NCBI GenBank assembly: GCA_963757805.1
Contig: CAVWSM010000008.1
Location: 2,969-66,968, forward strand
Direction of reading: 5' to 3'
DNA from: an uncultured Actinomycetota bacterium
GTDB lineage: Bacteria; Actinomycetota; Actinomycetes; Jiangellales; Jiangellaceae
Length of the DNA: 64,000 bases
Below the pieces are notes generated by a model. It worked only from the letters and a program-made list of their open reading frames with translations, had not been told where the DNA came from and ran no database searches. Position 1 is the stretch's first letter; each line of letters begins with the position of its first letter. Below, piece after piece: positions 6,420 through 54,707 of this stretch. The translations under genes and the position numbers were made by a program.

Positions 6420-7476
6420 CTACGCATGGAACGCCGCGAGACGTGCGGCTTCGTCGTCGAGCTCTGCGCGTGCGGCCTTCGCCAACCGCCCGAATGGCTT
6501 GACCACGATGCGCCCATCCTCGTACCTCCAGGTGCCCGCAACCGCGCCGTCGACGAGAACGGTGTTGAACGAGTGCGGCGTTTTGGTGTTGAAGATCCGC
6601 GAACGATGCTGCTCGGGCAGGATCTGCGTGCGTCGTGCGTGGGTGAGCAGCACGGCGTCCCAGACCGCCAGGAACCGTACGGGCGCCACGGTGTCGGCGT
6701 CCGGCAGCGGAAGGTCGGGCAGGTCGACCAAAGCCTTCCCGTCCACCGATCGGAAGTGCCGCAGCTCCATGTCTGACAGCGCCTCCGTCACCGTGCGTGA
6801 CGGGCAGCCCGGCCCAGGACGCGATGTCGGCCTTGGCCGCTGGGCCGAACGCGGTCAGGTAGCGCCGCACGAGCAGGTCGACACCCTGCCCCGGCGTGAC
6901 ATCGGCGGCGCCCACAGACCCGGGTGGCAGCCAGTCCTCTGCAAGCGCGAACAGGTTGGCTCGTGGCCGCTCCCAAGTGCCAGAGGGTGGAACACGTACG
7001 AGGTCGATGAACTGCGCAACTCCCTCGTGGCGTGACGGCTTGACCACCGCGTCGAGATCGGCGCGGCTCATCGGACCGTCGCGCAGCGCCTCACGCAGCC
7101 GTTTGGCCGCCGCCTCGGTGTCATCGGCGGAGACGCCCCGGGCGACGCGGACGTACCACTGCCGCCGCGGCTCGCGGATCGCCGCGGCCCACAACCAGTA
7201 GTCCTCGGCGGACACGAGATGGATCGTCGAGCGCAGCAACGTGGCCTGGATGATCGCGCGGTCCACCAGTGCGCGGGTCACCTCGTCGCGCGCGAGACCG
7301 GCGACACGGGACCAGAGTCCGACGTACACGGCCGGCGCGTACTGCGCCTGCACGCCGCCCATCGCCTCGAGCACCCGCGGAATCGGCCGCTCGACTCGCT
7401 CAAGCAGGAGCTGGCGTGCGAGCAGGGCACGATTGAGCTCGCGCTGCGTGAGTGTCCGAGCAGGCTTGGTTGCCAC
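6420..7476 (-). pseudogene. winged-helix DNA-binding protein of the YcaQ/crosslink-repair glycosylase-like family, frame-disrupted as assembled
   Basis: The N-terminal 228 aa are in ORF 5557..7476 (MATKPARTLTQRELNRALLARQLLLER...DIASWAGLPVT). The C-terminal part is in ORF 6420..6791 (TEALSDMELRHFRSVDGKALVDLPD...VDGAVAGTWRYEDGRIVVKPF). The switch lies at about 6788-6800. The rest of ORF 5557..7476 is Arg-rich antisense of the epimerase gene. Confidence 0.7.
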
Positions 7477-35222: not shown

Positions 35223-36592
35223 TGTCCGCTGCGACGTCGCACCTGCTCGCAGGGGTCTCGCCCGTGTCGCCGGCCGACGAGGTGGCCGGCTTCGGGGACG
35301 ATCCATGGTGGCTCGTGCTCATCAAGGTGCTGGCCATCTTCGTCTTGCTGGTCCTCTTCACACTGTTCAACATCTGGTTCGAGCGCCGTGTCGTGGCGCG
35401 GATGCAGCAGCGGATCGGCCCCAACAAGCACGGCCCGTTCGGTCTGCTTCAGTCGCTCGCCGACGGCATCAAGCTGGCGCTCAAGGAAGACGTCACTCCC
35501 AAGGCGGCCGACAAGCTGGTCTTCGTCATCGCGCCGATCATCGCCGTGGTGCCCGCGTTCCTGACGTTTTCCGTGATCCCGCTCGGACCCGAGGTCTCGA
35601 TCTTCGGCGAGACCACGCCGCTGCAGCTCACCGACATGTCTGTGGCCGTGCTGATCGTGCTGGCGTTCGCGTCGATCGGGGTCTACGGCATCGTGCTCGC
35701 CGGCTGGTCGTCGGGCTCGACCTACCCGTTGCTCGGCGGCCTGCGGTCGAGCGCCCAGGTCATCTCGTACGAAATCGCGATGGCCCTGTCGTTCGTTGCC
35801 GTGTTCCTCGAGGCCGGCACGATGTCGACCAGCGAGATCGTGGCCGAGCAGACCGATCTCTGGTTCGGCATCATGCTGATCCCGTCGTTCGTGATCTACC
35901 TGATCTCGATGGTGGGTGAGACCAACCGCGCGCCGTTCGACCTGCCGGAGGCTGAGGGCGAGCTCGTCGGCGGCTTCCACACCGAGTATTCCTCGCTGAA
36001 GTTCGCGCTCTTCTTCCTCGCCGAGTACATCAACATGGTCAACGTCGCCGCACTCGCCACGACGTTGTTCCTCGGTGGTTGGCTGGCACCGTGGCCGCTG
36101 TCGGCCATCGACAACGGCGTGCTCAACACGGGCTGGTGGCCGGTCCTCTGGTTCCTCGCCAAGGTCCTTCTCATCGTGTTCGTCTTCATCTGGCTGCGCG
36201 GCACGCTCCCGCGGTTGCGCTACGACCAGTTCATGTCGTTCGGCTGGAAGATCCTCATCCCCGTGGCGCTGGCCTGGATCGCCGTTTTCGCCGGGCTACG
36301 CGTCCTGCAGAACGAGGGCATCGAACGGCGCGAGCTGTTGATTGGCGCGGGCGTCCTCGCGGTCGTGGCCATCGTGCTCGCGCTGTTCGGCGGCGGCGGC
36401 GGTGGGCGCGAGGCGCCGGCGGCAGAGCCGGGGGTTCCGGCGGAGCCACGGGAGGGCGCGTTCGCCGCCTATCCGGTGCCGCCGCTGCCCGGCGAGGCTC
36501 CGCCCGAGCCGGTCGGCGCCACCACAGCCCGTACAACGGGTCTCGCCGACACCAGCGACGACATCTTCACTGGGGAGGAACCCCGTGCCTAA
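35222..36592 (+). CDS. nuoH: NADH-quinone oxidoreductase subunit H (with extra C-terminal TM helix and Gly/Pro/Ala-rich tail)
   Basis: 456 aa with [29 protein letters not shown] and the [17 protein letters not shown] motif. The tail is [22 protein letters not shown]... Confidence 0.9.
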
Positions 36593-43249: not shown

Positions 43250-44254
43250 GCAACGCCACCAGCGACCAGTCGGGGCTTGGGATCCCTGCGGTCGACCCGA
43301 CGTTGGAGGCTGCCGTCCGTGCCGGGCTCGAGGAGGTCGAGCTGCAGCTGCGGGAGGCCGTGAAGAGCGAGGACGAGTTCGTCTCGGAGGTATCCCGGCA
43401 CCTGCTCGACGCCGGCGGCAAGCGGTTTCGGCCGATGCTGGTCCTGCTCGCCGCTCAGCTCGGCGACGCCGAGGCGCCTGGCATCGTGCCGGCGGCCCTG
43501 GTCGTCGAGCTCACCCACGTGGCGACGCTCTACCACGACGATGTCATGGACGAGGCCGCTCTTCGGCGCGGAGCACCGAGCGCCAACAGCCGCTGGGACA
43601 ACAGTGTCGCCATCCTCACCGGTGACTACCTGTTCGCCAAGGCGTCCGAGATCGTGGCCGACCTCGGACCAGAAGCCGTACGGCTGCAGTCGCGCACCTT
43701 CCAGCGGCTGGTCACCGGGCAGCTGCGCGAAACCATCGGGCCGGGCAGTGGCGACGAGCTCGAGCACTACCTGTCGGTGCTGTCGGACAAGACCGGTTCG
43801 CTCATCGCGACTTCCGCCAGGTTCGGCGCATGGCTGTCTGGCTCTGACGAGGACGTCGTCGACGCGGTGACGGCCTACGGCGAGCGCATCGGGGTGGCGT
43901 TCCAGCTCGCCGACGATCTGATCGACATCGCGCGCAACACCACTGAGTCGGGCAAGACACCCGGGCACCGACCTGCGTGAAGGCGTGCGCACCCTCCCCG
44001 TGCTGCTCGCGCTCCGGTCGGTTGATCCCGCTGACGAGCGCCTGCATCAGCTGCTCGCCGGCCCCCTCGACGCCGATGCCCGGCACGCCGAGGCATTGGC
44101 ACTGCTGCGCGCGCACCCCGCTATGGCGCAGGCGCGCGGCGAGGTGCAGCGGTGGGCCGACGAGGCTCGAGCGCTCCTGGCGCCCGTGCCCGACGGCGCG
44201 GCGCGGCGGGCGCTGGAGTCGGTCTGCGATGCCGTCGTGACCCGTACGGGCTGA
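43246..44254 (+). pseudogene. trans-polyprenyl diphosphate synthase (GrcC1/HepT-like, menaquinone side chain), frame-disrupted as assembled
   Basis: The first Asp-rich motif is LYHDDVMDE and the second is FQLADDLIDI. After GKTPG the expected TDLREGVRTLPVLLAL continues in ORF 43985..44254. A single extra C at about 43966 (cccgggCaccgacctg) breaks the frame. Confidence 0.85.
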
Positions 44255-44269
44255 CGCGAGCGTCGGGTC

Positions 44270-44287
44270 GATCACGTTCACGTGATC
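44270..44287. promoter_or_regulatory. palindrome GATCACGT-tc-ACGTGATC upstream of the GH15 gene
   Basis: An 8+2+8 perfect inverted repeat, 16 nt after the polyprenyl synthase stop and about 135 nt before ATG 44422. It could be either an operator or a short terminator. Confidence 0.25.
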
Positions 44288-44421
44288 CACCCGGTCTGAG
44301 CGCGGCCTGCATACCTCGCACAGTCCGGGTACGCCTAGGCACGTGGTCGCTCGGTTGGCAGCAACCCGGCGGCGGCGGTCTGAGAGAATCACTCGATCTT
44401 GCCCTGATTCCTGGAGTACGT

Positions 44422-45933
44422 ATGACGGCCGTTGAGCTTCGCGAGCGATCGGAGAGCGCACCAGTCGCGCCCCGTCGTCGCAAGCTTGGCCGTGCGGGAC
44501 AGGTGGTGATCGTCTTGGTGGTCGTGGCGGCGCTCGTCGCGGGCGGGGCGTTCGCGTCCAGTCAGATTGCGCGCCCGCTACTGCCGCTCTATCCCGAGGG
44601 CATCGCCGCCGACGCTGACGGCAACGTGGTGGCACTGCCGGTCGGCGCGAGTGCAGATTTCATCCCGGGCACCAAACACCTTGTGGGCGACGAGGTCGGG
44701 GAGGCCGCGATTGAGGCGTCCCGTCGCTGGCTGGCGAGCGGGACAGTGCCCGGCGGCACCGACCTGGAACGCGAGCTGGCAGAGCAGGCGTTGCTCGACA
44801 TGCGGTTGCTCACCAACCGCGACGGCGCCACCGTCGCAGCGTGGCGGACGGCCTGGCAGTACGTGTGGCCGCGGGACGCCGCGTTCGTCGTGACAGCCTT
44901 CGCGGCGACCGGGCACTTCAGCGAGGCGGCGGACGTACTCAACTTCCTCTCCAGCGTGGCCAGCAGCAACGGCCTGTGGGAGGCGCGCTACCTCCCCGAT
45001 GGCTCAGGGTTGACGCCTGACTGTCGGGTGATGCAGTTCGACGGCGCTGGCTGGGTGCCGTGGGCGGTGTGGCAGTGGTACGTCGCCAGCGAGCAATCCC
45101 TTGGCGGCGCTTCCGACGTCGACCCCTACTGGCCGATGGTGTCGGCGACCGCCGACGCGATCGTTGCTGACATGGGAGTCGACGGCCTGCCTTCGCCGTC
45201 GTCCGACTACCTCGAGCATGCCGAGACGCGACTCACGCTTGGCGTCGCGGCTCCTCTGCTGCTTGGGCTGCGATCGGCGGCCGACCTGGCGCACCGCACG
45301 GGTCGCACTGCCGAAGGCGCGCGGTGGGACGCGGCCGGACAGTTGCTGGCTGCGGCCATCCGAGAGAACTTCGGCCGGGTCAACTATTCGCGCTACTTGG
45401 CCTCGAACGGCCACGACGAGTGGCGCATCGGCGCCAACGGGTACCCGCAGCGGCCCGAGGTCCGCAGCAACGCCGACTCGGCGGTCACCTTCCTCGCGCC
45501 GCCGTTCGCACCCGAGAATGCCGACGTAATGCGTGCCGTCACGCGCACGCAGCGCACCCTGACGCTGCTGTCCGGCGGCATCAAGCCGGTCGAGCAGTGG
45601 CGCGACGACGGCGTTGCGTGGACACCGGAGACGGCGCTGTTCGCACTCTCCGCGGCGGCGCGCGGCGACGATGCTGAGGCCCGCCGGCTACTCGCCTGGT
45701 TGGCGGAGCACCGCACCGCGTCGGGTGCGATCCCCGAGCAGGTTGGCCCGGCAGGTCAGCCGCTGTCGGCGGCCCCGCTCGCATGGAGCGAGGCCACCGT
45801 CTTGCTCACTGTGTTGGCGCTCGATGGCGTCGGCATCAGCACACCACCCGTACGCGGAGAGCCGGTCGACGCGCCGAAGCCGCAGGTCGAACCCCAGGAT
45901 GCAGGCGACCCGAAGCGCGAGAACTGCGACTGA
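44422..45933 (+). CDS. glycoside hydrolase family 15 (glucoamylase/glucodextranase-like), membrane-anchored
   Basis: ATG at 44422 with a TM anchor VVIVLVVVAALVAGGAF. The (alpha/alpha)6 signature segments are WQYVWPRDAAFVVTAF, QFDGAGWVPWAVWQWY and PEQVGPAGQPLSAAPLAWSEA. Confidence 0.8.
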   Translation: MTAVELRERSESAPVAPRRRKLGRAGQVVIVLVVVAALVAGGAFASSQIARPLLPLYPEGIAADADGNVVALPVGASADFIPGTKHLVGDEVGEAAIEASRRWLASGTVPGGTDLERELAEQALLDMRLLTNRDGATVAAWRTAWQYVWPRDAAFVVTAFAATGHFSEAADVLNFLSSVASSNGLWEARYLPDGSGLTPDCRVMQFDGAGWVPWAVWQWYVASEQSLGGASDVDPYWPMVSATADAIVADMGVDGLPSPSSDYLEHAETRLTLGVAAPLLLGLRSAADLAHRTGRTAEGARWDAAGQLLAAAIRENFGRVNYSRYLASNGHDEWRIGANGYPQRPEVRSNADSAVTFLAPPFAPENADVMRAVTRTQRTLTLLSGGIKPVEQWRDDGVAWTPETALFALSAAARGDDAEARRLLAWLAEHRTASGAIPEQVGPAGQPLSAAPLAWSEATVLLTVLALDGVGISTPPVRGEPVDAPKPQVEPQDAGDPKRENCD

Positions 45934-45950
45934 GCGAGTCCTGATTGGCT

Positions 45951-45970
45951 GAGGGTGCCCCTGCGCCAAT
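45951..45970 (+). repeat. left junction direct repeat (attL core candidate)
   Basis: GAGGGTGCCCCTGCGCCAAT, embedded in the 27-nt imperfect palindrome ATTGGCTGAGGGTGCCCCTGCGCCAAT (45944-45970). Confidence 0.8.
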
Positions 45971-45980
45971 AGGCAGTTAG

Positions 45981-45992
45981 TGCATATAGGTG
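45981..45992 (+). repeat. left terminal inverted repeat TGCATATAGGTG
   Basis: It is the exact reverse complement of 52540-52551 and lies 10 nt inside the left direct repeat. Confidence 0.75.
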
Positions 45993-46037
45993 ACGTTGAG
46001 CTGGCAACGCTCTGAGCAGCGAGGATGCGCTCCCGAG

Positions 46038-46072
46038 TCGAGCTGAGCCGTTCGGTGTGTCGCTCAGCTCGA
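46038..46072. terminator. hairpin TCGAGCTGAGC-13 nt-GCTCAGCTCGA overlapping the stop of ORF 46064..46270
   Basis: The stem is 11 bp. The first 26 nt are repeated exactly at 46310-46335. Confidence 0.5.
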
Positions 46073-46270
46073 CACGTCCCGACGATGATCAAGGACGTCG
46101 ACCGCTTCGTCCACGAGCTCAGTCGCTCGTGCGAGCGCTGCCCACTCAGCTGGGCTGACGTCAAGCGGATCAACGTCGTGGTAGGCGTCTGCCAGCGCGA
46201 CGAGCATCTGCGCTCCGTGCTTCAACTTCTCGGCTGCGGCACTCGTGGTGGCGGGGGCGTCATCGGTCAC
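46064..46270 (-). CDS. island hypothetical protein, 68 aa, acidic
   Basis: MTDDAPATTSAAAEKLKHGAQMLVALADAYHDVDPLDVSPAEWAALARATELVDEAVDVLDHRRDVSS. The composition is protein-like, the start is GTG, and the ORF is bracketed by two copies of the same hairpin. Confidence 0.45.
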   Translation of the reverse strand: MTDDAPATTSAAAEKLKHGAQMLVALADAYHDVDPLDVSPAEWAALARATELVDEAVDVLDHRRDVSS

Positions 46271-46309
46271 GCGGGCACGCTAGCGCTGCGGTGTCGACCG
46301 TGCTCGTCA

Positions 46310-46351
46310 TCGAGCTGAGCCGTTCGGTGTGTCGCGCTCAGCTGCGCTCGA
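46310..46351. repeat. second, slightly degenerate copy of the 46038 hairpin, in the divergent region between ORFs 46270(-) and 46364(+)
   Basis: TCGAGCTGAGCCGTTCGGTGTGTCGC is identical to 46038-46063. The right arm carries small insertions (GCGCTCAGCTGCGCTCGA). Confidence 0.55.
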
Positions 46352-46363
46352 TAGGTTTCGATC

Positions 46364-46543
46364 ATGACGGCCAGCTCGACGACAGTGCTCGCCCCGCATG
46401 ATCGACGTCGCGTGATCATCAGGCACCACGACGGCACGTTTATTGGGACGCACAGTGAGTGGCTCGGCTCCGATCGGGTGCGGCGCCCGGCTGACGACGA
46501 ACTCGCGAGTTGGCAGCCGAGCTCGCTGCGTGTCGCGAGCTGA
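46364..46543 (+). CDS. island hypothetical protein, 59 aa (below ORF-track cutoff), upstream partner of the HEPN-like ORF
   Basis: ATG at 46364, TGA at 46541-46543. Translation is MTASSTTVLAPHDRRRVIIRHHDGTFIGTHSEWLGSDRVRRPADDELASWQPSSLRVAS. It ends 5 nt before the next ATG. Confidence 0.4.
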   Translation: MTASSTTVLAPHDRRRVIIRHHDGTFIGTHSEWLGSDRVRRPADDELASWQPSSLRVAS

Positions 46544-46548
46544 GACGC

Positions 46549-47007
46549 ATGACGCTCGATGACTATGACCTCGATGCCGCTGACAAGCTGTCCCTGCTCA
46601 TCGGTCGCGTCTGCCAAGCCGACGCCGAGCTCGAACGCGCCGTCCGAATCAAGGCGATCGTGCTTCACGTCGACGAGGTGTTGGCGGGCAGCAGGCCGCT
46701 GAAGCGTGACCTCAATCAGCTAGTGCAAATGTGCCGGGATGCGCTGGACACGACCGAGCTGCCGATCGATCACGATGTGGTCCGGGCCGCACTTGACGAG
46801 GCTGTCGCCGCTCACGAGGAGCGGAATCGAGTGGTGCACGATCAGTGGCTAATCGTCGAAAGCGGCAAGCTAGCTCGCGTGCAGACCTTGCCGCCATACA
46901 CGTTGCACTTCGACGCGTCGCAGCAGACGCTTGCTGAAGTCGAAGCAGTGCAGCGCCGACTGAACGCTGCCAGACAGGGCATTGAGCGCGCTCTGAGACC
47001 ACAGTGA
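46549..47007 (+). CDS. island protein, 152 aa, with RNxxxH motif (HEPN-like, putative RNase/toxin)
   Basis: ATG at 46549 (MTLDDYDLDAADKLSLLIGR...). The protein looks all-helical, with AVAAHEERNRVVHDQW about 50 aa from the C-terminus. This matches the R-[NDH]-x3-H HEPN signature and resembles the RNxLVHxY motif of DUF86/HepT. The antisense ORF 46267..46668 was rejected. Confidence 0.55.
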   Translation: MTLDDYDLDAADKLSLLIGRVCQADAELERAVRIKAIVLHVDEVLAGSRPLKRDLNQLVQMCRDALDTTELPIDHDVVRAALDEAVAAHEERNRVVHDQWLIVESGKLARVQTLPPYTLHFDASQQTLAEVEAVQRRLNAARQGIERALRPQ

Positions 47008-47020
47008 GCTGCGAGCTCAC
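47004..47020. terminator. short hairpin GTGAGCT-gcg-AGCTCAC between convergent island ORFs
   Basis: The 7-bp stem spans both stop codons (47005-47007 on plus, 47017-47019 on minus). Confidence 0.3.
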
Positions 47021-47201
47021 GCGACATGCTTCGCCATAGCGACCGTGCGGCCCACCTTGCCGTCGTTGAGGTACTGACGACCGCCCATGACGACGTAGAC
47101 CGGGCGCGCCTCGTCTGCGGCACGAGCGCACAGCTCGACGAGCACGCAGATGCTGCAGCCGTCAGCGCTGCTGTCGGTGCTCGTCGCAGCTCGCGCGCGC
47201 C

Positions 47202-47259
47202 GTCGAGCCAGAAGCTCGACGTCGCGCGTGCAGCGGCGACGTCGAGCGTCTGGCTCGAC
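47202..47259. repeat. 58-nt near-perfect inverted repeat (24-bp arms, 1 mismatch, 10-nt loop)
   Basis: GTCGAGCCAGAAGCTCGACGTCGC gcgtgcagcg GCGACGTCGAGCGTCTGGCTCGAC. A second imperfect inverted repeat flanks it at about 47125-47198. No convincing coding frame was found across 47150-47360. Confidence 0.7.
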
Positions 47260-47359
47260 CCGCACGGCAGCGACGACATCGACGCAGCGCTGAGCGGCTG
47301 CAGGCTACGGCTCGGGCAGCTGCACCCTCTGCCCAAGCTGGACCCCGCCCGGTCGTTGG

Positions 47360-47935
47360 TCAGCCTTCGAGTACCGGGACGACCGCAGCGCAGAAGTCGT
47401 CGGTCCGTCCTGTCGATCCCTTCACCTCGCCGAGGAACTCGAGGAACTCGTCGTCCGACGGGTCGGCCGGCGTGCCGCCATGGTCGATCAGCAACTCGAA
47501 CCGAATCTGGCCGGGGTTCCTGGCGAGGGCCTTGCCGTCCGGGCCGAACGCGGCGATGTTTCCGGTAGACAAGACGAGGATCGTGAGTGTGCCGTCGCCG
47601 TTGTCGGTCACGCGGAGGTCCTTGTCGACAAAGTTGCCGACCTCGGTGACGAAGTTGCCGTTGGCCACGTTCGTGTACACGGCGGTGAACTTGATGTTCG
47701 CATGGAAATAGACCAAGCCGTCCGGCCCGTGTCGGTTGACCAGCACGCGACCGTCGGCTACCTGGTCGAACTCGACCGTGAGGCCGTCAACGTCACAGAA
47801 GTCGTCGGTGATCTCGGTGAATTCGTCGTGGAATTTCGTGTGCTCGATCGGCTTGGCGGTGGCCCCTCCTGCCAGCGTCATCGAGCCCATCATGGCCAAT
47901 CCCGCCGCGAGCCCAAGCGTTCGCGCAAGCCTCAT
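47360..47935 (-). CDS. island secreted protein of unknown function
   Basis: ATG at 47935 after AAGGGGGG. The signal peptide is MRLARTLGLAAGLAMMGSMTLAGGATA. The mature part is beta-rich with two DDFC motifs, possibly forming a disulfide. Confidence 0.7.
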   Translation of the reverse strand: MRLARTLGLAAGLAMMGSMTLAGGATAKPIEHTKFHDEFTEITDDFCDVDGLTVEFDQVADGRVLVNRHGPDGLVYFHANIKFTAVYTNVANGNFVTEVGNFVDKDLRVTDNGDGTLTILVLSTGNIAAFGPDGKALARNPGQIRFELLIDHGGTPADPSDDEFLEFLGEVKGSTGRTDDFCAAVVPVLEG

Positions 47936-48060
47936 GATCCCCCCTTGGTCCAAGTGACCCCCCCGGTCACGTTGGGCCATGGTGACTCTCACCGGCATCG
48001 TCGTCAACAGTGCGACAACGAGGCCTGAGTCGTTGCAGGCTCAGGGGCGCCGGTGCGTAG

Positions 48061-48351
48061 TCAGATGCTGCCAGGGAGTGACGCACTGAGACTCGGCTGC
48101 CCTGCCGACCGGGCGTCAGCTATCTGGGGCACGCCCGGTCGGGCAGGGAGCTCGCGTCTGAGCAGCGGTGCCAGTCGACGTCGCGCGTCGTCGCAGGGGT
48201 GACTGTCACAGACGCTGTGCAGCTCGCGGAGCCATGCACGAGCTGCAGGGTGTCGCACGTACTGCGGCCCACACTCTCGGTCGCCAGCTCGCCAGCTGTC
48301 TCGCCCTGCCTCGATGACGATCGCGAGACACCGAGGACGGCGAGAGCTCAT
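48061..48351 (-). CDS. island hypothetical protein, 96 aa, Cys/His-containing
   Basis: The ATG at 48349-48351 overlaps the upstream stop (ATGA). Translation includes MSSRRPRCLAIVIEAGRDSWRAGDRECGPQYVRHPAARAWLRELHSVCDSHPCDD... Only the part from Met39 of ORF 48061..48465 is used. Confidence 0.4.
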   Translation of the reverse strand: MSSRRPRCLAIVIEAGRDSWRAGDRECGPQYVRHPAARAWLRELHSVCDSHPCDDARRRLAPLLRRELPARPGVPQIADARSAGQPSLSASLPGSI

Positions 48352-48937
48352 GCGCCGATCTGTGCGGCACCGGTCGGCTGCACACCGACGAGCACGTATC
48401 GGCTGTACGAGATGAGCGTGCCGAGCATCGCAGGCTGCACCCTCACGTCTTCGCGGAGCTCCCACAGCAGGATGGTGATCGCTGCAGGGTCGTACAAGAC
48501 CGGCTTCGGCACTGTGCTGTCGATGACTACGCGTACCCCGGCATCGGTGAGCTTGTCGAGGTCGAGCGTGAGCAAGCTCGACAACGAGCCGATGCGCACG
48601 GCTCTCGCTTCGAGCTCAGCCTTCTCGGCGGACTGCGGCGCGGCGATCGGCAGCTTCGACCGTCGGGCAGCACAGGCACACCCTGCGTGCTGGTCGTCGC
48701 GTTGATGATCGTCGCGTTCGTGGCGTCGAGTAGCGGCGCTGCAGCTGCGTCGAGCGCTGAGGCGATGTCGACGACCCAGGTGCCGATGAGCCCAGCTGCG
48801 CTCGTGTCGTCGGTCGTGATGTGCGGTTCACGCTTCAGCGCTGCGGCTCGTGTCGCGACGACAGTCAGACTCGGACGTCGATCGAGCGTCTGCTGATCGA
48901 GCGTCGGCGTAGGCGTCAGCAACGATGCGATGGTCAT
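48348..48937 (-). pseudogene. island hypothetical protein, about 196 aa, frame-disrupted as assembled
   Basis: ORF 48527..48937 reads well to ...TSTQGVPVLPDG. The continuation SKLPIAAPQSAEKAELEARAVRIGSLSSLLTLDLDKL...YVLVGVQPTGAAQIGA is in the frame of ORF 48348..48599. The switch lies at about 48655-48665. Confidence 0.5.
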
Positions 48938-48984
48938 GCGGTCGAGTCTCGACGCTGCTGCTCGTGTTCGGTCGTTTCGACGAC

Positions 48985-49371
48985 TCAGGGCAGCAGCACG
49001 AAGAGTCGCCCGTCGATCTTCTCGCCCACCAGCTGCCCTTTGCGGTAGCGCTTCGTGACAGCGCTGACGGTGATGCCGAGCTTGTCGGCGGCTTCACGCG
49101 CAGACACGTACAGGGCTCGAAGCGCTGCGTCTGCTTCGTCGTTGTCGTGAGTACGCTCGTCGAGCTTGATGACGTTGAGCATGTCGCTCATGCGTGGCTG
49201 CAGAGCTAGCAGCAGCTGCTTGTCGACGCGCCCACCAGATGCGCTCAGCGCTGTCAGGATCACGAGGCAGTCGTCTGGGTCGAGCTCGACGACGTTCGCG
49301 ACGCAGCGGCTCACCGACAGCTCCTGGTGAGCAAGTGACCGACCGAAGACGGGCGATCGGTCGCGATGCAC
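48985..49371 (-). CDS. island helix-turn-helix DNA-binding protein (excisionase/MerR-like HTH at C-terminus)
   Basis: The C-terminus LYVSAREAADKLGITVSAVTKRYRKGQLVGEKIDGRLFVL matches the excisionase-type HTH pattern. An alternative start is GTG 49314, preceded by AGGAG. Confidence 0.6.
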   Translation of the reverse strand: MHRDRSPVFGRSLAHQELSVSRCVANVVELDPDDCLVILTALSASGGRVDKQLLLALQPRMSDMLNVIKLDERTHDNDEADAALRALYVSAREAADKLGITVSAVTKRYRKGQLVGEKIDGRLFVLLP

Positions 49372-49516
49372 GGCGAGAGCTCGGGATGCAAGGCGAAGGC
49401 CGCACCTAGGTTTCGAACGTGTCGTTGAGAGAGAGAAACGCGAGTGTCACGAAAGGGTTGCCAGCTCGCGTCTCAGAAAACGATCATGCTCTCCTTCGAG
49501 CCGGTGAAGATGTGGA

Positions 49517-49765
49517 TCACGCAGCTGCGACCGCGTGCAGCACGTCGAGCAACGGCGGGTGCTGCACGCAGTCCGTGCCGTGATAGATGAGCGCGAGCTG
49601 CACGTCGTCACGCTGCTCTTGCCCGAGCAGCACAGTGCATGAGCACGGCTCGACTGCGTGCCGCAAGATGTCGAACGCGAGCTGGTCGCTGTGCAGTTGC
49701 AGCTCGACAACCCCATCGGCGCGATGATGCTCGACTGCGTAGCTACCGCTGCTGATCGTGTCCAT
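49517..49765 (-). CDS. island hypothetical protein, 82 aa
   Basis: MDTISSGSYAVEHHRADGVVELQLHSDQLAFDILRHAVEPCSCTVLLGQEQRDDVQLALIYHGTDCVQHPPLLDVLHAVAAA. Its composition is better than that of the overlapping ORF 49447..49824. Confidence 0.4.
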   Translation of the reverse strand: MDTISSGSYAVEHHRADGVVELQLHSDQLAFDILRHAVEPCSCTVLLGQEQRDDVQLALIYHGTDCVQHPPLLDVLHAVAAA

Positions 49766-49833
49766 GCATCGATGATCGACGCAGCTGGCTCTCGACGGTG
49801 GTGCTCACGACTGCGCCGCATCATCGGCTCAGC

Positions 49834-50019
49834 TCACTCGTCGTCGAGCTCGCGACCTTCGTCGTGCTGACCGATCGAGCGATAATCACGCACCGGCAGC
49901 TGATTGCGTCGCTCGTACTCAGCGACGGTCGAAGCGACTTGCTCGTCAGTGTCGTCGGCCGCTCGTGCGAGGTCGCCGCCGTAGGCGAGCGCGACCATGC
50001 GCGGGTAGCCGTTGCTCAC
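49834..50019 (-). CDS. island hypothetical protein, 61 aa, acidic
   Basis: The GTG start overlaps the stop of the preceding micro-ORF (GTGA). Translation is VSNGYPRMVALAYGGDLARAADDTDEQVASTVAEYERRNQLPVRDYRSIGQHDEGRELDDE. Confidence 0.4.
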   Translation of the reverse strand: MSNGYPRMVALAYGGDLARAADDTDEQVASTVAEYERRNQLPVRDYRSIGQHDEGRELDDE

Positions 50020-50114
50020 CTTGCGGATACGCCGCGCAGTCGTGAGACAAGATCGGGGAAGTCCCTACGCAGCCGCTCGACGTCGACGCTGCTCGGTGTG
50101 CTGAAGTTGCTCAC
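50016..50114 (-). CDS. island micro-ORF, 32 aa (not in ORF track)
   Basis: VSNFSTPSSVDVERLRRDFPDLVSRLRGVSAR. Both its start and its stop sit in GTGA overlaps with the neighbouring ORFs. Confidence 0.3.
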   Translation of the reverse strand: MSNFSTPSSVDVERLRRDFPDLVSRLRGVSAR

Positions 50115-50275
50115 GTCGCGCCCCAGCCGTGATCTTTGAGCCCGTACGTGAGGTGCTGCGCTCGACGAGCTGCTGCGTCGCTCAGATGCACGAGCGGGCG
50201 CTGGCAGCTCGGCAGCGCGCGTCTGGTGACGCCTGGCAGCGTCCCCTCGACGCGTCGCCGAAGTCGGGCCATCAT
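50111..50275 (-). CDS. island micro-ORF, 54 aa (not in ORF track)
   Basis: ATG at 50275 preceded by GGGAG. Translation is MMARLRRRVEGTLPGVTRRALPSCQRPLVHLSDAAARRAQHLTYGLKDHGWGAT. Confidence 0.35.
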   Translation of the reverse strand: MMARLRRRVEGTLPGVTRRALPSCQRPLVHLSDAAARRAQHLTYGLKDHGWGAT

Positions 50276-50305
50276 GAAGGTGCTCCCGTCAAGAGCCTGA
50301 GGCGG

Positions 50306-50551
50306 TCACCTGTGCTGGGTGATCGCCTCGTCGTTGTGTAGCTGCTGCTGAGCTGCTCGCTGCTCGACAGCCAGCTGCGCGTGCCTGGTGCGAATCTCGT
50401 CGAGCAAAGCGGCTACGGAGTCGAGCTGTTCGTCAGTCAACGGCGGAAGCTTCGCGACGTCTTCAGCCGCGTGCGCCATGCGCAGCTTGTCGAGCTCCCG
50501 CTGACGCTGTGCCCGCCGAGCCTCGCGACGCCCTTCCGCCCGCGCGCTCAT
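50306..50551 (-). CDS. island hypothetical protein, 81 aa, coiled-coil-like
   Basis: MSARAEGRREARRAQRQRELDKLRMAHAAEDVAKLPPLTDEQLDSVAALLDEIRTRHAQLAVEQRAAQQQL... The ATG overlaps the upstream stop (ATGA). Confidence 0.45.
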   Translation of the reverse strand: MSARAEGRREARRAQRQRELDKLRMAHAAEDVAKLPPLTDEQLDSVAALLDEIRTRHAQLAVEQRAAQQQLHNDEAITQHR

Positions 50552-50726
50552 CGCTCGACGTCGGCTGTCTCGATGAGCTCGGCCTGTTGCGCTGTTTGGA
50601 CGATGCGCTCGATCTGTTCTCGCTCGTACGGTCCCCGGTCTGGATCTTGTCGAGGATCAACTGCGTGCGCCGCACTCTCGCGCTTCTCTCCCAGGCGATC
50701 TTCTGCCGCTTCGGTTGCGCAGTCAT
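50548..50726 (-). pseudogene. island small protein, about 58 aa, first gene of the leftward operon, frame-disrupted as assembled
   Basis: ATG at 50726 gives MTAQPKRQKIAWERSARVRRTQLILDKIQT. After the GGGG run at 50633-50636 the sensible continuation GPYEREQIERIVQTAQQAELIETADVER is in another frame. That frame ends in an ATGA overlap with the next ORF. Confidence 0.4.
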
Positions 50727-50832
50727 ACTGAGCTCGTCAACGTTCGTCACGCGCCCAGTGTGTGAGCACAATCGCGAAGGCAGTAGTCGTGATTTGCAGT
50801 GCGCCAACGCGAACAGTGGACGCGTTTCGCGC

Positions 50833-50951
50833 ACTTGAAGTCGGTACATGTCGTGACTTGAAGTTGCGTGCCGAATCTTGGCGAGTCACGAAGTGACGCA
50901 CCAGGAACGCTTGTGCACACCTTGACGGATTCGACGAATCGAACGCCGTTC
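50833..50951. promoter_or_regulatory. cluster of short palindromes in the recombinase/operon intergenic region
   Basis: ACTTGAAGT occurs twice (50833-50841 and 50856-50864). Other palindromes are GTCACgaaGTGAC (50885-50897), GATTCGaCGAATC (50928-50940) and GAACGcCGTTC (50941-50951). The region is AT-richer. Confidence 0.4.
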
Positions 50952-51016
50952 GCGACACACGACCACGGAAGCGCCGCCAGCTCGACGTCTGACGGCACTT
51001 CGTGAGCGGGACGAGC

Positions 51017-52522
51017 TCAGTCGTTGAGCTCGAACCTGTCGGCGCTGCCGCGTGCGCCCCGGTACAGAATGAAGCCCCTCGGGATCGCCCGCGTGATCAT
51101 CGCTCGCCGCTCGGCAGGGGTGGTGCGCTCGTCGTCCCAGAGCGCAGAAACAGCGTCCTCACTCTCAGCTTGCGCGTGCTCGTCAGCACCCGCCTTCAAC
51201 AGCTCGTCACGCTCGGCTGTCAGCTTCGCGAGCCGCGCATCAAGCGGCGCTGCCGCAGCGTCGTAACGATCGAGCGCTATCTCTTCGCGCCCGAGCCGGT
51301 CAGCGAGCGTGACAGCCAGCTGCTCCGCTTGGGCGATCTTCGCTGACACAGCTGCGACAGCTCGCGAGCGTCGAGCGATCTGCTCGGCGTGCTTCGGATC
51401 GGACAGCCGCTTGATCACTCTGTCGCGCACCCAGCGCTCCGCGATACGCGCATCGATCTGTTGGCCGCATGACTTGCAGCGGTAGATGCGACGCGGCTGC
51501 CCGTCGTCGTACGTGTCGCGGCTCGTGCCGGGTCTGATCATCCCCGACAGGCCACGCTTGCAGTCGCCGCAGCGACCGACACCGGACAGGATGTGATCGC
51601 CGCTGTAAGGACGTCCGCGACGACGAGCTGCGAACGACGACGCGATCTGCTCGAAGCGGTCGACACTGATGATCGGCTGCACGTTCGTCGCTGTGCGCAG
51701 CGCACCCGGCTGGGCCTCGTACAGACCCGCGTGTCGCGGGTTGTTGAGCGCCTTCGCGACTGTCAGCCCGTCCCACTTGCGCCCGATCGTCGTTGTCAGC
51801 CCTGCAGCGTTCCAGCTGCGTGCGATCGCTGCCAGCGTCTCCCCCTGATCCAGGTACGCGTCGATCGCTTCGACGAGCGCAGCACGCTCCCGCTCGACGA
51901 GCTCGGCGTCTGTCCCCTTGCCGGGGTGCCCGAACGCACGCTGTCCGTTGCCCATGACGCTCGCCTCCCGTCGTGCTGCTGCCTTGCGCCGCTGACGGCG
52001 ACTGGTGTTGTCGCTCTCTTTGCACGCGGCAGCTGTCAGCACGCGCAGCGTGAAGCGATCATCAGAGCTCGCGAGGTCGTACTCACCGAAGCAGCTCGCG
52101 ACGGTCAGCCCGCTGTCAGCGAGCGCGATCAGCACTTCGAGGTCGAACGGCTGGCGCATCAGCCGGTCGGTGTGCCAGACGACGACACCCTGCGCTTGAC
52201 GGTTCTTCAGCCGATCGACGAGCTCGTCCCACCCGGGACGCTTGCGATTGCGCTGCCACGCGCTCTTGTTGTCGTCACGCAGCACCCGCCCGAGACGTGC
52301 GCCACGACGCTCGACTTCACGCAGACAGTCGAGCAGCTGCCGGTCCGTCTTCTCCGTCTCGTCATCTTCGTTGTCGGGGTTGCGCGAGATGCGCGCAGAC
52401 GCGTCGAGCACGTCTGCCGAGGCGAACACCGGGTCGTGATCACGCTCGCGCAGACGTGCCGCGACGACATGCCAGCTGTCGTTGGTCGAGCTAGGTTGAT
52501 CTTGTTTCAGAGTCGCTGTCAT
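51017..52522 (-). CDS. large serine recombinase (resolvase catalytic domain, recombinase domain, zinc ribbon, coiled coil)
   Basis: ATG at 52522 (MTATLKQDQ...). The catalytic region is ASARISRNPDNEDDETEKTDRQ...RPGWDELVDRLKNRQAQGVVVWHTDRLMRQ. The recombinase domain includes LAAIARSWNAAGLTT...WDGLTVAKALNNPRHAGL. The zinc ribbon is RCGDCKRGL...YRCKSCGQ, followed by a long helical C-terminus. Confidence 0.9.
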   Translation of the reverse strand: MTATLKQDQPSSTNDSWHVVAARLRERDHDPVFASADVLDASARISRNPDNEDDETEKTDRQLLDCLREVERRGARLGRVLRDDNKSAWQRNRKRPGWDELVDRLKNRQAQGVVVWHTDRLMRQPFDLEVLIALADSGLTVASCFGEYDLASSDDRFTLRVLTAAACKESDNTSRRQRRKAAARREASVMGNGQRAFGHPGKGTDAELVERERAALVEAIDAYLDQGETLAAIARSWNAAGLTTTIGRKWDGLTVAKALNNPRHAGLYEAQPGALRTATNVQPIISVDRFEQIASSFAARRRGRPYSGDHILSGVGRCGDCKRGLSGMIRPGTSRDTYDDGQPRRIYRCKSCGQQIDARIAERWVRDRVIKRLSDPKHAEQIARRSRAVAAVSAKIAQAEQLAVTLADRLGREEIALDRYDAAAAPLDARLAKLTAERDELLKAGADEHAQAESEDAVSALWDDERTTPAERRAMITRAIPRGFILYRGARGSADRFELND

Positions 52523-52539
52523 GCAGCAAGTCTGAAGAG

Positions 52540-52551
52540 CACCTATATGCA
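52540..52551 (+). repeat. right terminal inverted repeat CACCTATATGCA
   Basis: It is the reverse complement of 45981-45992. It lies 18 nt inside the right direct repeat and 18 nt upstream of the recombinase start codon. Confidence 0.75.
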
Positions 52552-52569
52552 TGGTCTACAGGTCTGTCA

Positions 52570-52589
52570 GAGGGTGCCCCTGCGCCAAT
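52570..52589 (+). repeat. right junction direct repeat (attR core candidate)
   Basis: GAGGGTGCCCCTGCGCCAAT, identical to 45951-45970. Confidence 0.8.
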
Positions 52590-52621
52590 CCTGGGTTGGC
52601 TGAGGGCGGCCCTGCGCCAAT
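52590..52621 (+). repeat. third, variant copy of the target palindrome unit (CCTGGGTTGGCTGAGGGCGGCCCTGCGCCAAT)
   Basis: It differs from the left unit CCTGATTGGCTGAGGGTGCCCCTGCGCCAAT (45940-45970) at about 4 positions. It directly abuts the right direct repeat. It also pairs with GGCGCAGGGAGCCGCC (52629-52644) as a hairpin just after the phoX stop. Confidence 0.7.
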
Positions 52622-52655
52622 CAGCAGCGGCGCAGGGAGCCGCCCCCCTGTGGTC

Positions 52656-54707
52656 TCAAGCGCCGATGCGCCTACCCCTGCCGTGCCAGACATTGGCCAC
52701 ACCGGGCCGCGGGAAAGCGTGGGTGTGCGGCCAGAGGCTCCTTGGCGCCTCGAACGGCGGCAAGGGCGCGGTCTCACCGGGATGCTGCACTGCGACGAAA
52801 ACCGTGCGCCCGTCCTCGGTCACGAACGGGCCGCAGGTCTCGGCAAACAGCGGCATGGTGAGGAACTGCTGCACCTTGCCTCGGTCGCGACCTGCCACGG
52901 GGACCGCGAACAGGCCGTCGTTGGAGCCGAGCACGTTGCCGTCCGTGGAGATCCACAGGTTGCCAGCTGGGTCGAACGTGACGTTGTCCGGGGCCGAGAT
53001 CGGACTGACCTGGTCCTTGGGGAAGCCGGCGAAGTAGCTCTCCTCCGCCTCGGGGTCACCACAGACGAGGAACAGGTTCCAGCTGAACGTCGTCGCCGCG
53101 GCGTCGTTGCGACGCTCGGCGAGCTCGAGCACATAGCCGTTGCGGTTGCCACTCTGCTGCACCAGCGGCGCGCCCAAGGACGGCCGGGTGTGGCTCATCG
53201 TGATTGGGTTGGCCGCGTCCGGGAGCGGGGTGTTGCTGGTCGGGTTGCCACGGTTGGAGTTGTTGGTGAGCGCCATGTAGACGTTGCCGTTGACGGGGTT
53301 GCGCTCGACGTCCTCCGGCCGGTCCATCCGCGTCGCCGCTACGGTGTCAGCGGCGAGCCGGGTGTTGATCAGCACCTCCGCGACGGAGAAGTCCGGGACG
53401 AACGACTCGGTGTCGCTCGTCAGCGGAATCCACTCACCGCTGCCGTCGAAAGGCAGGTCCTGAGGCAACGCACCCGAGAACTTCGCGACATAGAGCGTGC
53501 CGTGGTCGAGCAGCGACATGTTGTGCCGACGGTCCCAGCCGCGGTAGCGGTCGCGCGAGACGAACTTGTAGAGATAGTCGCCGCGCTCGTCGTCTCCCGA
53601 GTAGGCCACGACGCGGCCGTCCCGCGCGATCGTCACAGTCGCCGCCTCGTGCTTGAAGCGGCCGAGCATGGAGCGCTTCTTGGGGGTCGAGTCGGGGTCG
53701 TAGGGATCGATCTCGACGATCCAGCCGAACTTGTAGGCCTCGGTCGGGTTGGTGCCGAGGTCGAACCGGGGATCCGCATCACTCCATCGGCGCGACTCCA
53801 AACCGGCAGTGGTCCTGATGCCGTAGCGCGTGAAGCTAGTGGCGTGCTCGGACGCGACGGCCACCGAGGCGTCGAAGTACTGGTTGAAGTTCTCCTCGCC
53901 CGAGAGCACGGTGCCCCACGGCGTGGTACCACCGGAGCAGTTGTTCAACGTCCCGAGGACGTCACCCGCGAGCCGCCCGTCGCCGGCTGCAGGGCCGGTG
54001 ATCTCCATCGGCGTGTTGGCCGTGATGCGCCGGTTGAACCGGTCGGCACCCGGGACGGGCAGCCACTGCCCGCGATGCCGGTCGCGCTCGATCTCGACGA
54101 TCGACAACCCGTGCGCGGCCATGGCGACATGAGCCTGCGCCACGAGGTCGTACGCCCCGGTCGGAAACATGAGGGGCTCGTCGGTGTACTCGTGGTTGAC
54201 CACGAGCAGCGCCCGCTCCTTGCCGCGGACGTGCTTGAGCGGGAGCACGCTGACGTAGTCGCAGTTGTAGCCGAACTGCATGGCCTGTGCCTCGGGCGTC
54301 TGCGCAGCCGGGTCGAACGCCGGCGCGCCGGCGACTACGGGGTCGCCCCACGCGATGACGAGCGCCTGCTCGTAGCCGGCCGGGATCGTGATGTTGTCGA
54401 GGTTATTGGGGGGAACGGGGGTGAACCCGAATCCGCCGCCGCTGCTATGTTCGCTTCCCTTCGCCGCCGCCGGCACGACCTGCAGCGCGCCCAGGCCCGC
54501 GGCCGCTGCGCCGACAGCACCGGCCTTGAGCACCGATCGGCGAGCGATGACACCTTCGAGGATGGTCTGGATGTGTTCGTTACCCGACGTATTCGGCTCG
54601 GGGTGGAAACAGGCGTTGCCACATCGGAAGTGACAGGTTGCCGCACTGCGTGAGCCGTGCGGGCCGAACAGGGGGAGCAGGCGACGCCGATCGGTCGGGA
54701 CGGTCAT
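52656..54707 (-). CDS. phoX: alkaline phosphatase PhoX (DUF839 family), Tat-secreted
   Basis: ATG at 54707 after AAGGAGA. Features are the CHFRCGNACFHPEPNTSGNE segment, the Tat-type signal RRSVLKAGAVGAAAAGLGAL and a beta-propeller-like body (VVNHEYTDE, GTTPWGTVLSGEEN). The upstream part of ORF 52656..54926 was rejected. Confidence 0.85.
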   Translation of the reverse strand: MTVPTDRRRLLPLFGPHGSRSAATCHFRCGNACFHPEPNTSGNEHIQTILEGVIARRSVLKAGAVGAAAAGLGALQVVPAAAKGSEHSSGGGFGFTPVPPNNLDNITIPAGYEQALVIAWGDPVVAGAPAFDPAAQTPEAQAMQFGYNCDYVSVLPLKHVRGKERALLVVNHEYTDEPLMFPTGAYDLVAQAHVAMAAHGLSIVEIERDRHRGQWLPVPGADRFNRRITANTPMEITGPAAGDGRLAGDVLGTLNNCSGGTTPWGTVLSGEENFNQYFDASVAVASEHATSFTRYGIRTTAGLESRRWSDADPRFDLGTNPTEAYKFGWIVEIDPYDPDSTPKKRSMLGRFKHEAATVTIARDGRVVAYSGDDERGDYLYKFVSRDRYRGWDRRHNMSLLDHGTLYVAKFSGALPQDLPFDGSGEWIPLTSDTESFVPDFSVAEVLINTRLAADTVAATRMDRPEDVERNPVNGNVYMALTNNSNRGNPTSNTPLPDAANPITMSHTRPSLGAPLVQQSGNRNGYVLELAERRNDAAATTFSWNLFLVCGDPEAEESYFAGFPKDQVSPISAPDNVTFDPAGNLWISTDGNVLGSNDGLFAVPVAGRDRGKVQQFLTMPLFAETCGPFVTEDGRTVFVAVQHPGETAPLPPFEAPRSLWPHTHAFPRPGVANVWHGRGRRIGA

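Follow-up and report, generated by a model that had tools for sequence, protein, structure and literature searches.

The window analysed here is a stretch of 64,000 nt on contig CAVWSM010000008.1 (assembly GCA_963757805.1) of an uncultured bacterium of the Jiangellaceae, and its positions 46549-47007 hold a real gene. Judged by alignment, the 152-residue product belongs to an unannotated Actinomycetota family with a usual length of about 200 residues, of which it is a divergent member with a short C-terminus. The locus consists of this one gene and is not a toxin-antitoxin pair. We favour the reading that the protein is a stand-alone HEPN-like RNase of an undescribed Actinomycetota family, which travels as single-gene cargo of mobile elements and is held inactive until triggered, and we give this reading a little less than an even chance. 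We call the protein HEPN-like; it is not a proven member of the HEPN superfamily. The features on which the argument turns are the following.

46549..47007, + strand: gene for the HEPN-like protein, 152 aa, ATG start (coding signature, NCBI/ENA call, homologues, AlphaFold2 model)
46633..46647, + strand: codons E29-x3-R33, another conserved motif ([DE]x3R type), located in the long first helix (family alignment)
46822..46848, + strand: codons R92-N93-R94-V-V-H97-D98-Q-W100, conserved core with the putative catalytic Rx4H motif (family alignment and predicted helix 75-97)
46364..46543, + strand: 59-codon open reading frame (ORF), ATG start, judged to be open by chance, within the leader or promoter region of the gene (no coding signal, homologue, annotation or conservation)

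The window is of high GC content overall (0.63-0.73), and the homologue set places it, on sequence grounds, among the Actinomycetota. Frame 46549-47007 has the coding signature of high-GC DNA, with G+C fractions of 0.75/0.38/0.73 at the three codon positions (GC1/2/3) and a codon log-likelihood of +0.21 per codon, which bears out the good G/C third-position bias reported in an earlier reading made from the letters of the DNA (the sequence-only reading). The NCBI and ENA annotations carry its product as precisely 152 aa (P0001). An alternative in-frame TTG start at 46510 would lead to a protein of 165 aa; since alignments to homologues start at residues 7-13, and M1 of P0002 falls against M1, ATG 46549 is the likely start. 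The peptide EERNRVVHDQW, to which the sequence-only reading had drawn attention, is present at residues 90-100, with R92 encoded at 46822-46824 and H97 at 46837-46839.

An exhaustive phmmer search of 1.84 billion representatives found 28 relatives with 32-47% identity, mostly of about 200 aa. A profile search extended these to 65 clusters, all of which bear the label "hypothetical" and lack a Pfam domain, while a word-indexed homologue search with the 165-aa form returned only the protein itself. The total comes to about 80 distant homologues, all of them unnamed and all from Actinomycetota or metagenomes. The family is undescribed in Pfam, NCBIfam, PADLOC and PHROGs, and we found no publication on it.

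The conservation pattern of the family is uneven. Columns are otherwise only about 24% identical, but in the alignment of 83 sequences H97 and D98 are found in all members, R92, N93 and W100 in 82 and R94 in 81. Further upstream, G19 is present in 78/78 sequences. An acidic residue (D or E) occupies position 29 in 77/78, and together with R33, which is kept in 63/78, it forms a [DE]x3R motif. The mere occurrence of the motif is at chance level: the roughly 19.7 k residues of likely window genes hold two RNxxxH and five R[NDH]xxxH matches. We regard RNxxxH as significant because it is invariant across the 83 family sequences, and conservation in homologues, which the sequence-only reading had named as a test of its motif, speaks for that motif. 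For the P0030 orthologues, a group of 85-100% identity, the ratio of nonsynonymous to synonymous substitution rates (dN/dS) ranges from 0.19 to 0.50, which indicates purifying selection on the gene in this group.

The position of the motif in the predicted fold adds to this pattern. We built an AlphaFold2 (AF2) model on the family alignment, of which the secondary structure and the confidence values were considered (predicted local distance difference test, pLDDT, 90.4; predicted template-modelling score, pTM, 0.83); a model from the single sequence was poor (pLDDT 55) and was discarded. The model predicts four main helices, the first long and kinked (10-39 plus 41-46), followed by 55-68, 75-97 and 128-148, with a beta-hairpin at 99-111 between the last two. 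RNxxxH (92-97) makes up the final turn of the third of these helices. According to Anantharaman et al. (2013; PMC3710099), HEPN domains carry the Rx4-6H motif where helix 3 ends, the residue following its R is typically N, D or H, and many families have an Ex3[KR] motif upstream of it, in helix 2, with its acidic residue close to the active site. The window protein has Rx4H with a polar residue directly after the arginine (R92-N93-R-V-V-H97), and the AF2 prediction places it at the end of helix 3. We favour HEPN-type catalysis because the invariant R-N-x3-H, its placement where helix 3 ends and the upstream acidic-x3-R, taken together, match what has been described for catalytic HEPN domains. 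Of the HEPN-like motif proposed in the sequence-only reading, the part concerning RNxxxH as a conserved family core at the predicted end of helix 3 therefore stands, whereas a profile link to HEPN families was not found.

The genomic surroundings of the homologues repeatedly link the family to prophages, integrative elements and small acquired islets. In L003/L026 the homologue lies in a Nocardioides prophage with integrase, HTH_17, TerL, portal and capsid genes; in L021 it is part of a phage-like contig with portal, Prim-Pol and UvrD helicase genes. It directly follows the tyrosine integrase of a small element in L016, shares an island with integrase, HTH_17 and a TrwC relaxase in L024, and lies beside IS110 fragments in L022. 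In several loci (e.g., L005, L007, L009 and L011) its GC3 is below that of most neighbours. For the short metagenomic loci, a local iterative integrase search added nothing.

A conserved partner gene was sought at 14 genome loci (all Actinomycetota; 13-sequence query alignment), at look-up loci and at 18 metagenomic loci; genes were called per locus and clustered all against all in the 14 and then in about 37 loci. At neither stage did we find a neighbour family common to divergent members, and the only shared neighbours reflect trivial synteny inside one near-identical orthologue group. A conserved co-transcribed partner as in type II-like toxin-antitoxin systems was likewise not found. Upstream genes are often divergently oriented, and the upstream (left) flank varies even within the orthologue group of 85-100% identity. 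Nor is there a sign of an RNA antitoxin array of the type III kind: 17 loci have no consistent flanking tandem repeats, with L005 as sole exception. No Rfam match lies near the 152-aa gene, and a scan of 45000-53000 gave only spurious eukaryotic microRNA and small nucleolar RNA matches on hairpin sequence. An adjacent nucleotidyltransferase (MNT) gene is absent from homologous loci, and the ORFs of the island that surrounds the gene in the window have no NTP_transf_2 or Polbeta match. In the absence of a conserved neighbour, an RNA-repeat array or an adjacent MNT gene across loci, we consider the family to be one of lone genes. The statement of the sequence-only reading that the locus has no MNT partner and is not a canonical HepT-MntA system is hereby confirmed: no MNT gene lies beside the gene, and the protein has no DUF86 match.

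Three observations from single loci or groups are recorded here. The repeat of L005 (about 6590-6711) consists of a 34-nt unit present 3.6 times and begins directly after the stop codon of the homologue, where the contig ends; no other locus has such an array. Fusions of a helix-turn-helix (HTH) domain with MNT (NTP_transf_2/Polbeta) are encoded at L024 13455-13928 and L041 3608-4078, 2-6 kb from the HEPN-like gene. The two are 35% identical, neither is beside a DUF86 gene and the loci are otherwise unrelated, so that they may represent coincidence or a loose MNT association. In the P0030 group, the ORF downstream of the family member (L034 5814-6191, L037 1383-1898, L028 2465-3082) has no Pfam match. 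In two of the three loci this ORF has an R-D-x3-H of its own (ERLRDIYEHSD), and it is possibly another HEPN-like gene, arranged in tandem with the first.

The sequence-only reading had seen in 46364-46543 and 46549-47007 a two-gene module of toxin-antitoxin or abortive-infection architecture, in which the 59-aa ORF would be the antitoxin gene. Its coordinates are correct, and the ORF is indeed co-directional and ends 5 nt before ATG 46549. As the window protein lacks the C-terminal tail of its family (see below), a separate inhibitor would even be conceivable for this particular allele. However, a coding signal is lacking: with a codon log-likelihood of -0.07 per codon, the ORF does no better than the antisense frames of the same DNA (-0.10 and -0.09), and its GC1/2/3 is 0.63/0.58/0.77. 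ORFs of at least 30 aa number 79 in the surrounding 6-kb stretch. The exact 59-aa sequence is missing from a collection of 15 billion proteins, though both flanking genes of the same contigs are present there, and the ORF is uncalled in the NCBI, ENA and Logan annotations of the window DNA. It has no homologue among 5.8 billion clusters and no match in Pfam, NCBIfam, PADLOC or PHROGs. A survey of co-occurrence, as proposed along with the module, found the 59-aa ORF beside homologues of the 152-aa protein at none of about 25 independent loci, where neither the peptide nor the 615 nt of upstream DNA has any counterpart. In addition, other tail-less members, such as that of L022, have no called upstream gene. 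We judge the 59-codon ORF to be a chance ORF rather than an antitoxin gene; the two-gene architecture is very improbable, and it has to be given up for a single gene.

The antisense ORF at 46267-46668 raises another alternative, namely that it is the real gene and that the ORFs of the + strand are its shadows, a result that the sequence-only reading had listed as fatal to its own proposal. The frame exists and is open over 133 aa, and its GC3 of 0.74 resembles that of the gene on the + strand. Against this, it has no family matches, has never been annotated, and has a codon log-likelihood of about -0.1 per codon over the part measured. It moreover covers the first 120 nt of the + strand gene, the conserved N-terminus, in which G19, [DE]29 and R33 are maintained in about 80 homologues. 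We regard it as next to impossible that this ORF is the gene.

For the lone gene, RNase activity, dimerisation, auto-inhibition and a defence role are what we infer by analogy with characterised systems. Two protomers would pair their R92-x4-H97 motifs, with N93 and the acidic residue 29 assisting, and the paired motifs would form a metal-independent RNA-cleaving site as in HEPN RNases. Given the lack of a conserved partner gene, the restraint would have to reside inside the protein or its oligomer, so that activity may be held in check within the oligomer itself or by the tail. A trigger, for example an infecting phage, would then release the activity, a logic which has been demonstrated for HepS and proposed for AbiD/AbiF-type proteins. 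The outcome might be growth arrest or abortive infection that protects both the element and its host.

Several observations weigh against this reading of the protein. The topology deviates from the HEPN description in two respects, as the conserved acidic residue 29 lies in the first predicted helix instead of helix 2, and the insert is located between helices 3 and 4 instead of 2 and 3. As to the fold, for which the sequence-only reading had named a departure from the HEPN four-helix bundle as a refutation, Foldseek searches of PDB and BFVD with the AF2 model gave no match at E < 0.2; the best HEPN entry was 4nqf (E = 1.7, template-modelling score 0.23). None of the Pfam, NCBIfam or PADLOC models matched any of 29 aligned members, the PHROGs search gave no link to a HEPN family, and a sequence profile search of PDB found only a designed helical bundle. 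As regards the association with mobile elements, about half of the genome loci have housekeeping neighbours only and no recognisable mobile-element gene within 6 kb, and a tblastn search with family members found no homologue in 50,697 sequenced phages and 72,556 plasmids. Finally, the window protein itself is atypical. It has no tail and ends 54 residues past the motif, just after the last helix (152 vs. about 200 aa), and it has A and G at two otherwise conserved positions of the last helix, R140 (64/81) and R144 (72/81).

We therefore also have to consider that the family might consist of non-enzymatic helical mobile-element proteins, such as regulators, inhibitors of host or phage factors, or immunity proteins, in which RNRxxHD-W is a binding surface and the resemblance to HEPN is convergent. 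The lack of detectable homology or fold similarity to HEPN speaks for this alternative, and so do the chance frequency of RNxxxH by itself and the Foldseek results, in which the top non-significant matches are generic up-down helical bundles, e.g., chemoreceptor sensor domains and FAT/GIT domains. By contrast, the conjunction of an invariant R-[polar N]-x3-H, the upstream acidic-x3-R and the position at the end of helix 3 is the one described for catalytic HEPN domains, and residues kept as strictly as R, N, H and D are in a family of about 24% identity per column tend to be catalytic rather than binding residues. A non-enzymatic role is rather unlikely in our view, and the HEPN-like nuclease remains the reading we prefer.

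The divergence of the window copy calls for separate consideration. The C-terminal tail of the family comprises about 50 aa with the sequence [ED]DRFDLxxDGGxR, and about 60 of the 83 members fit this pattern in a loose form. A tblastn search with 29 homologues detected no tail remnant in any frame downstream of 47007, so that a recent frameshift is not the cause of the short C-terminus. P0008, P0014 and P0068 are tail-less as well and end soon after the last core helix. The window protein keeps all seven invariant residues, and it scores 145 bits against the family profile, compared with 160-227 for most full-length members. The window copy may be a deregulated, attenuated or inactive allele, judging from its sequence.

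The last of these options, in which the family is functional and the window copy a decaying, inactive remnant on a degraded island, overlaps with the reading that we prefer and seems to us unlikely. In its favour are the 152 aa in place of about 200, the missing tail, the replacement of R140 and R144, the place of the protein among the lower-scoring full-length members, and the loss of the recombinase gene from the island of the sister strain L001. On the other side, the seven invariant residues are retained, the frame is intact with a good coding signature, AF2 predicts a complete and confident fold for the 152 residues, no tail remnant lies downstream, and a few other members are tail-less too.

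Among known systems, the closest parallel to a lone HEPN-like effector is HepS (HEPN Solo defence element), a protein of the Gifsy-1 prophage of Salmonella Typhimurium with the motif R100-H105 and no partner gene (PMC13043305). Like the window protein (R92-H97), HepS has a single domain with Rx4H near residue 100. It is prophage-borne without a conserved partner or inhibitor, and the present family is mobile-element-linked and likewise partnerless. The comparison is one of descriptions and not of sequences, and the host phylum differs. HepS shows self-inhibition followed by activation through a trigger, a logic that would be only implied for the present family, and the tetramerisation, tRNA cleavage and phage trigger of HepS are not part of the likeness. 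An ORF of Gifsy-1 in strain LT2 (35980-36582, 200 aa) was considered as HepS and rejected, as it does not contain the motif.

The abortive-infection proteins AbiD/AbiF (Pfam Abi_2), AbiU2 and AbiJ (PMC3710099) share with the family the R-N-x3-H motif, an all-helical core, and an existence as stand-alone mobile-element genes with no dedicated antitoxin. In contrast to these, whose Pfam and PADLOC models match no family member, the proteins described here are much smaller, have a beta-hairpin between helices 3 and 4, and extend the motif by an invariant HD-x-W. HepT of the type VII toxin-antitoxin system HepT-MntA (DUF86) is similarly a small HEPN-type protein with RNxxxH near a helix end. HepT, however, is encoded adjacent to an MNT gene, while in the present family only two loci have HTH-MNT genes, 2-6 kb away. 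HepT has the motif RNxxxHxY, whose tyrosine is adenylylated by MntA, whereas the family has RNRVVHDxW with an invariant W at +2 after the histidine; HepT belongs to DUF86, for which the family has no match.

A parallel from an actinobacterial host is gp57r of the mycobacteriophage Butters, a stand-alone putative HEPN protein of prophage-mediated defence that is non-toxic when expressed (bioRxiv 10.1101/2023.01.03.522681). It resembles the family in its origin from a prophage of an actinobacterial host, its length of 194 aa, the sequence RDRCAH at 94-99 and a predicted helix-motif-strand layout, but an hhalign comparison with the family profile shows no similarity (probability 0.2%).

In the window, the HEPN-like gene starts 615 nt inside an island that is flanked by a GH15-like gene (ending at 45933) and phoX (ending at 52656). 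The features of the island are as follows.

45934..52552, no strand: low-GC3 island of about 6.6 kb, with the HEPN-like gene at its left edge (drop in GC and GC3; differences to L001)
51017..52552, - strand: gene for a large serine recombinase, with which the island ends on the right (Pfam Resolvase 2e-16, Recombinase 4e-9, Zn_ribbon_recom)
48985..49371, - strand: 128-aa protein with C-terminal HTH and weak excisionase- or regulator-like matches (Pfam, PHROG, PADLOC)
47202..47259, no strand: hairpin between the convergent genes 46549-47007 (+) and 47360-47935 (-), with 24-nt arms of 96% complementarity
46038..46063, + strand: 26-nt perfect direct repeat, copy A, in a hairpin with a 12-bp stem (0 expected by chance)
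46310..46335, + strand: 26-nt perfect direct repeat, copy B, about 210 nt upstream of ATG 46549 (0 expected by chance)

The matches of the 128-aa HTH protein are to Pfam HTH families (E = 0.0015 or weaker, all under the curated cut-offs), to PHROG 66 "excisionase and transcriptional regulator" (0.007) and to PADLOC mad1 (8e-5). The metagenomic contig L001, which is 99% identical to the window, breaks at 45928. It does not contain window positions 49152-52339, the recombinase segment, and carries 52340-52516 (177 bp, the 5' end of the recombinase gene) inverted at L001 3409-3583. The left junction lies inside the 128-aa HTH ORF, of which only 57 aa are left in L001. The rearrangement is either a recombinase-mediated inversion and deletion or an artefact of metagenome assembly. 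Based on the break, the missing segment and the inversion, we regard the island as variable between strains. This difference and the serine recombinase at the edge support the mobile-island position that the sequence-only reading had assigned to the gene.

The hairpin at 47202-47259 (-58/-62 kcal/mol, z = -5.5/-5.9) is probably a bidirectional terminator; consensus scans for promoters and terminators over 45800-47500 gave nothing. Most of the differences between the window and L001 over 45928-48573 fall into 47156-47242, a segment made up of part of the 5' arm of this hairpin and the sequence shortly before it, and only two single-base changes are found elsewhere. The differences are base changes and indels with a net length that is not a multiple of three, on which ground we reject the ORFs 47017-47265 (-) and 47026-47568 (+) as genes.

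The 26-nt repeat reads TCGAGCTGAGCCGTTCGGTGTGTCGC. Its two copies lie 272 nt apart, with a partial third copy at 46536-46547, and the hairpin of copy A has a predicted energy of -23.8 kcal/mol. The copies flank the ambiguous ORFs 46064-46270 (-) and 46085-46318 (+), just within the left edge of the island. The repeat is absent from IMG/VR; possible roles are those of an operator or a pair of terminators, or it may be what is left of a recombination site. The gene convergent with the HEPN-like gene, 47360-47935 (-), encodes 191 aa with a signal-peptide-like N-terminal segment (MRLARTLGLAAGLAMMGSMTLAGGATA) and has a GC3 of 0.85; it is annotated by NCBI/ENA as P0084 and has no match in any library. 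The longest ORF of the GH15-like gene (glucoamylase or oligosaccharide amylase; 44152-45933, +) has an implausible Arg-rich N-terminal extension, and translation probably begins a good way downstream of 44152.

The practical result for the annotation of this locus is one gene and no toxin-antitoxin pair. We consider it possible, though on the doubtful side, that the homologues form an unrecognised HEPN-like nuclease family, so far known only from Actinomycetota and related metagenomes, that is carried as lone mobile-element cargo and marked by an invariant RNRxxHD-x-W active-site patch, the beta-hairpin between helices 3 and 4 and the [ED]DRFDLxxDGGxR tail. This tail may serve the protein as its own inhibitor or as a sensor, or else be a permuted core helix. 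If the protein is a lone HEPN RNase, it would be an effector of defence or genetic conflict that is missing from Pfam, NCBIfam, PADLOC and PHROGs and is therefore invisible to current defence-system finders in Actinomycetota, where work on such systems has been comparatively scarce. If confirmed, the family would be new but of a familiar kind, the lone HEPN effectors on mobile elements, and useful, though unsurprising to the specialist. The family would then also provide a compact model of 150-200 aa for the silencing of a partnerless toxic nuclease, with tailed and tail-less natural variants, and the natural tail-less allele of the window could show how the family is regulated.

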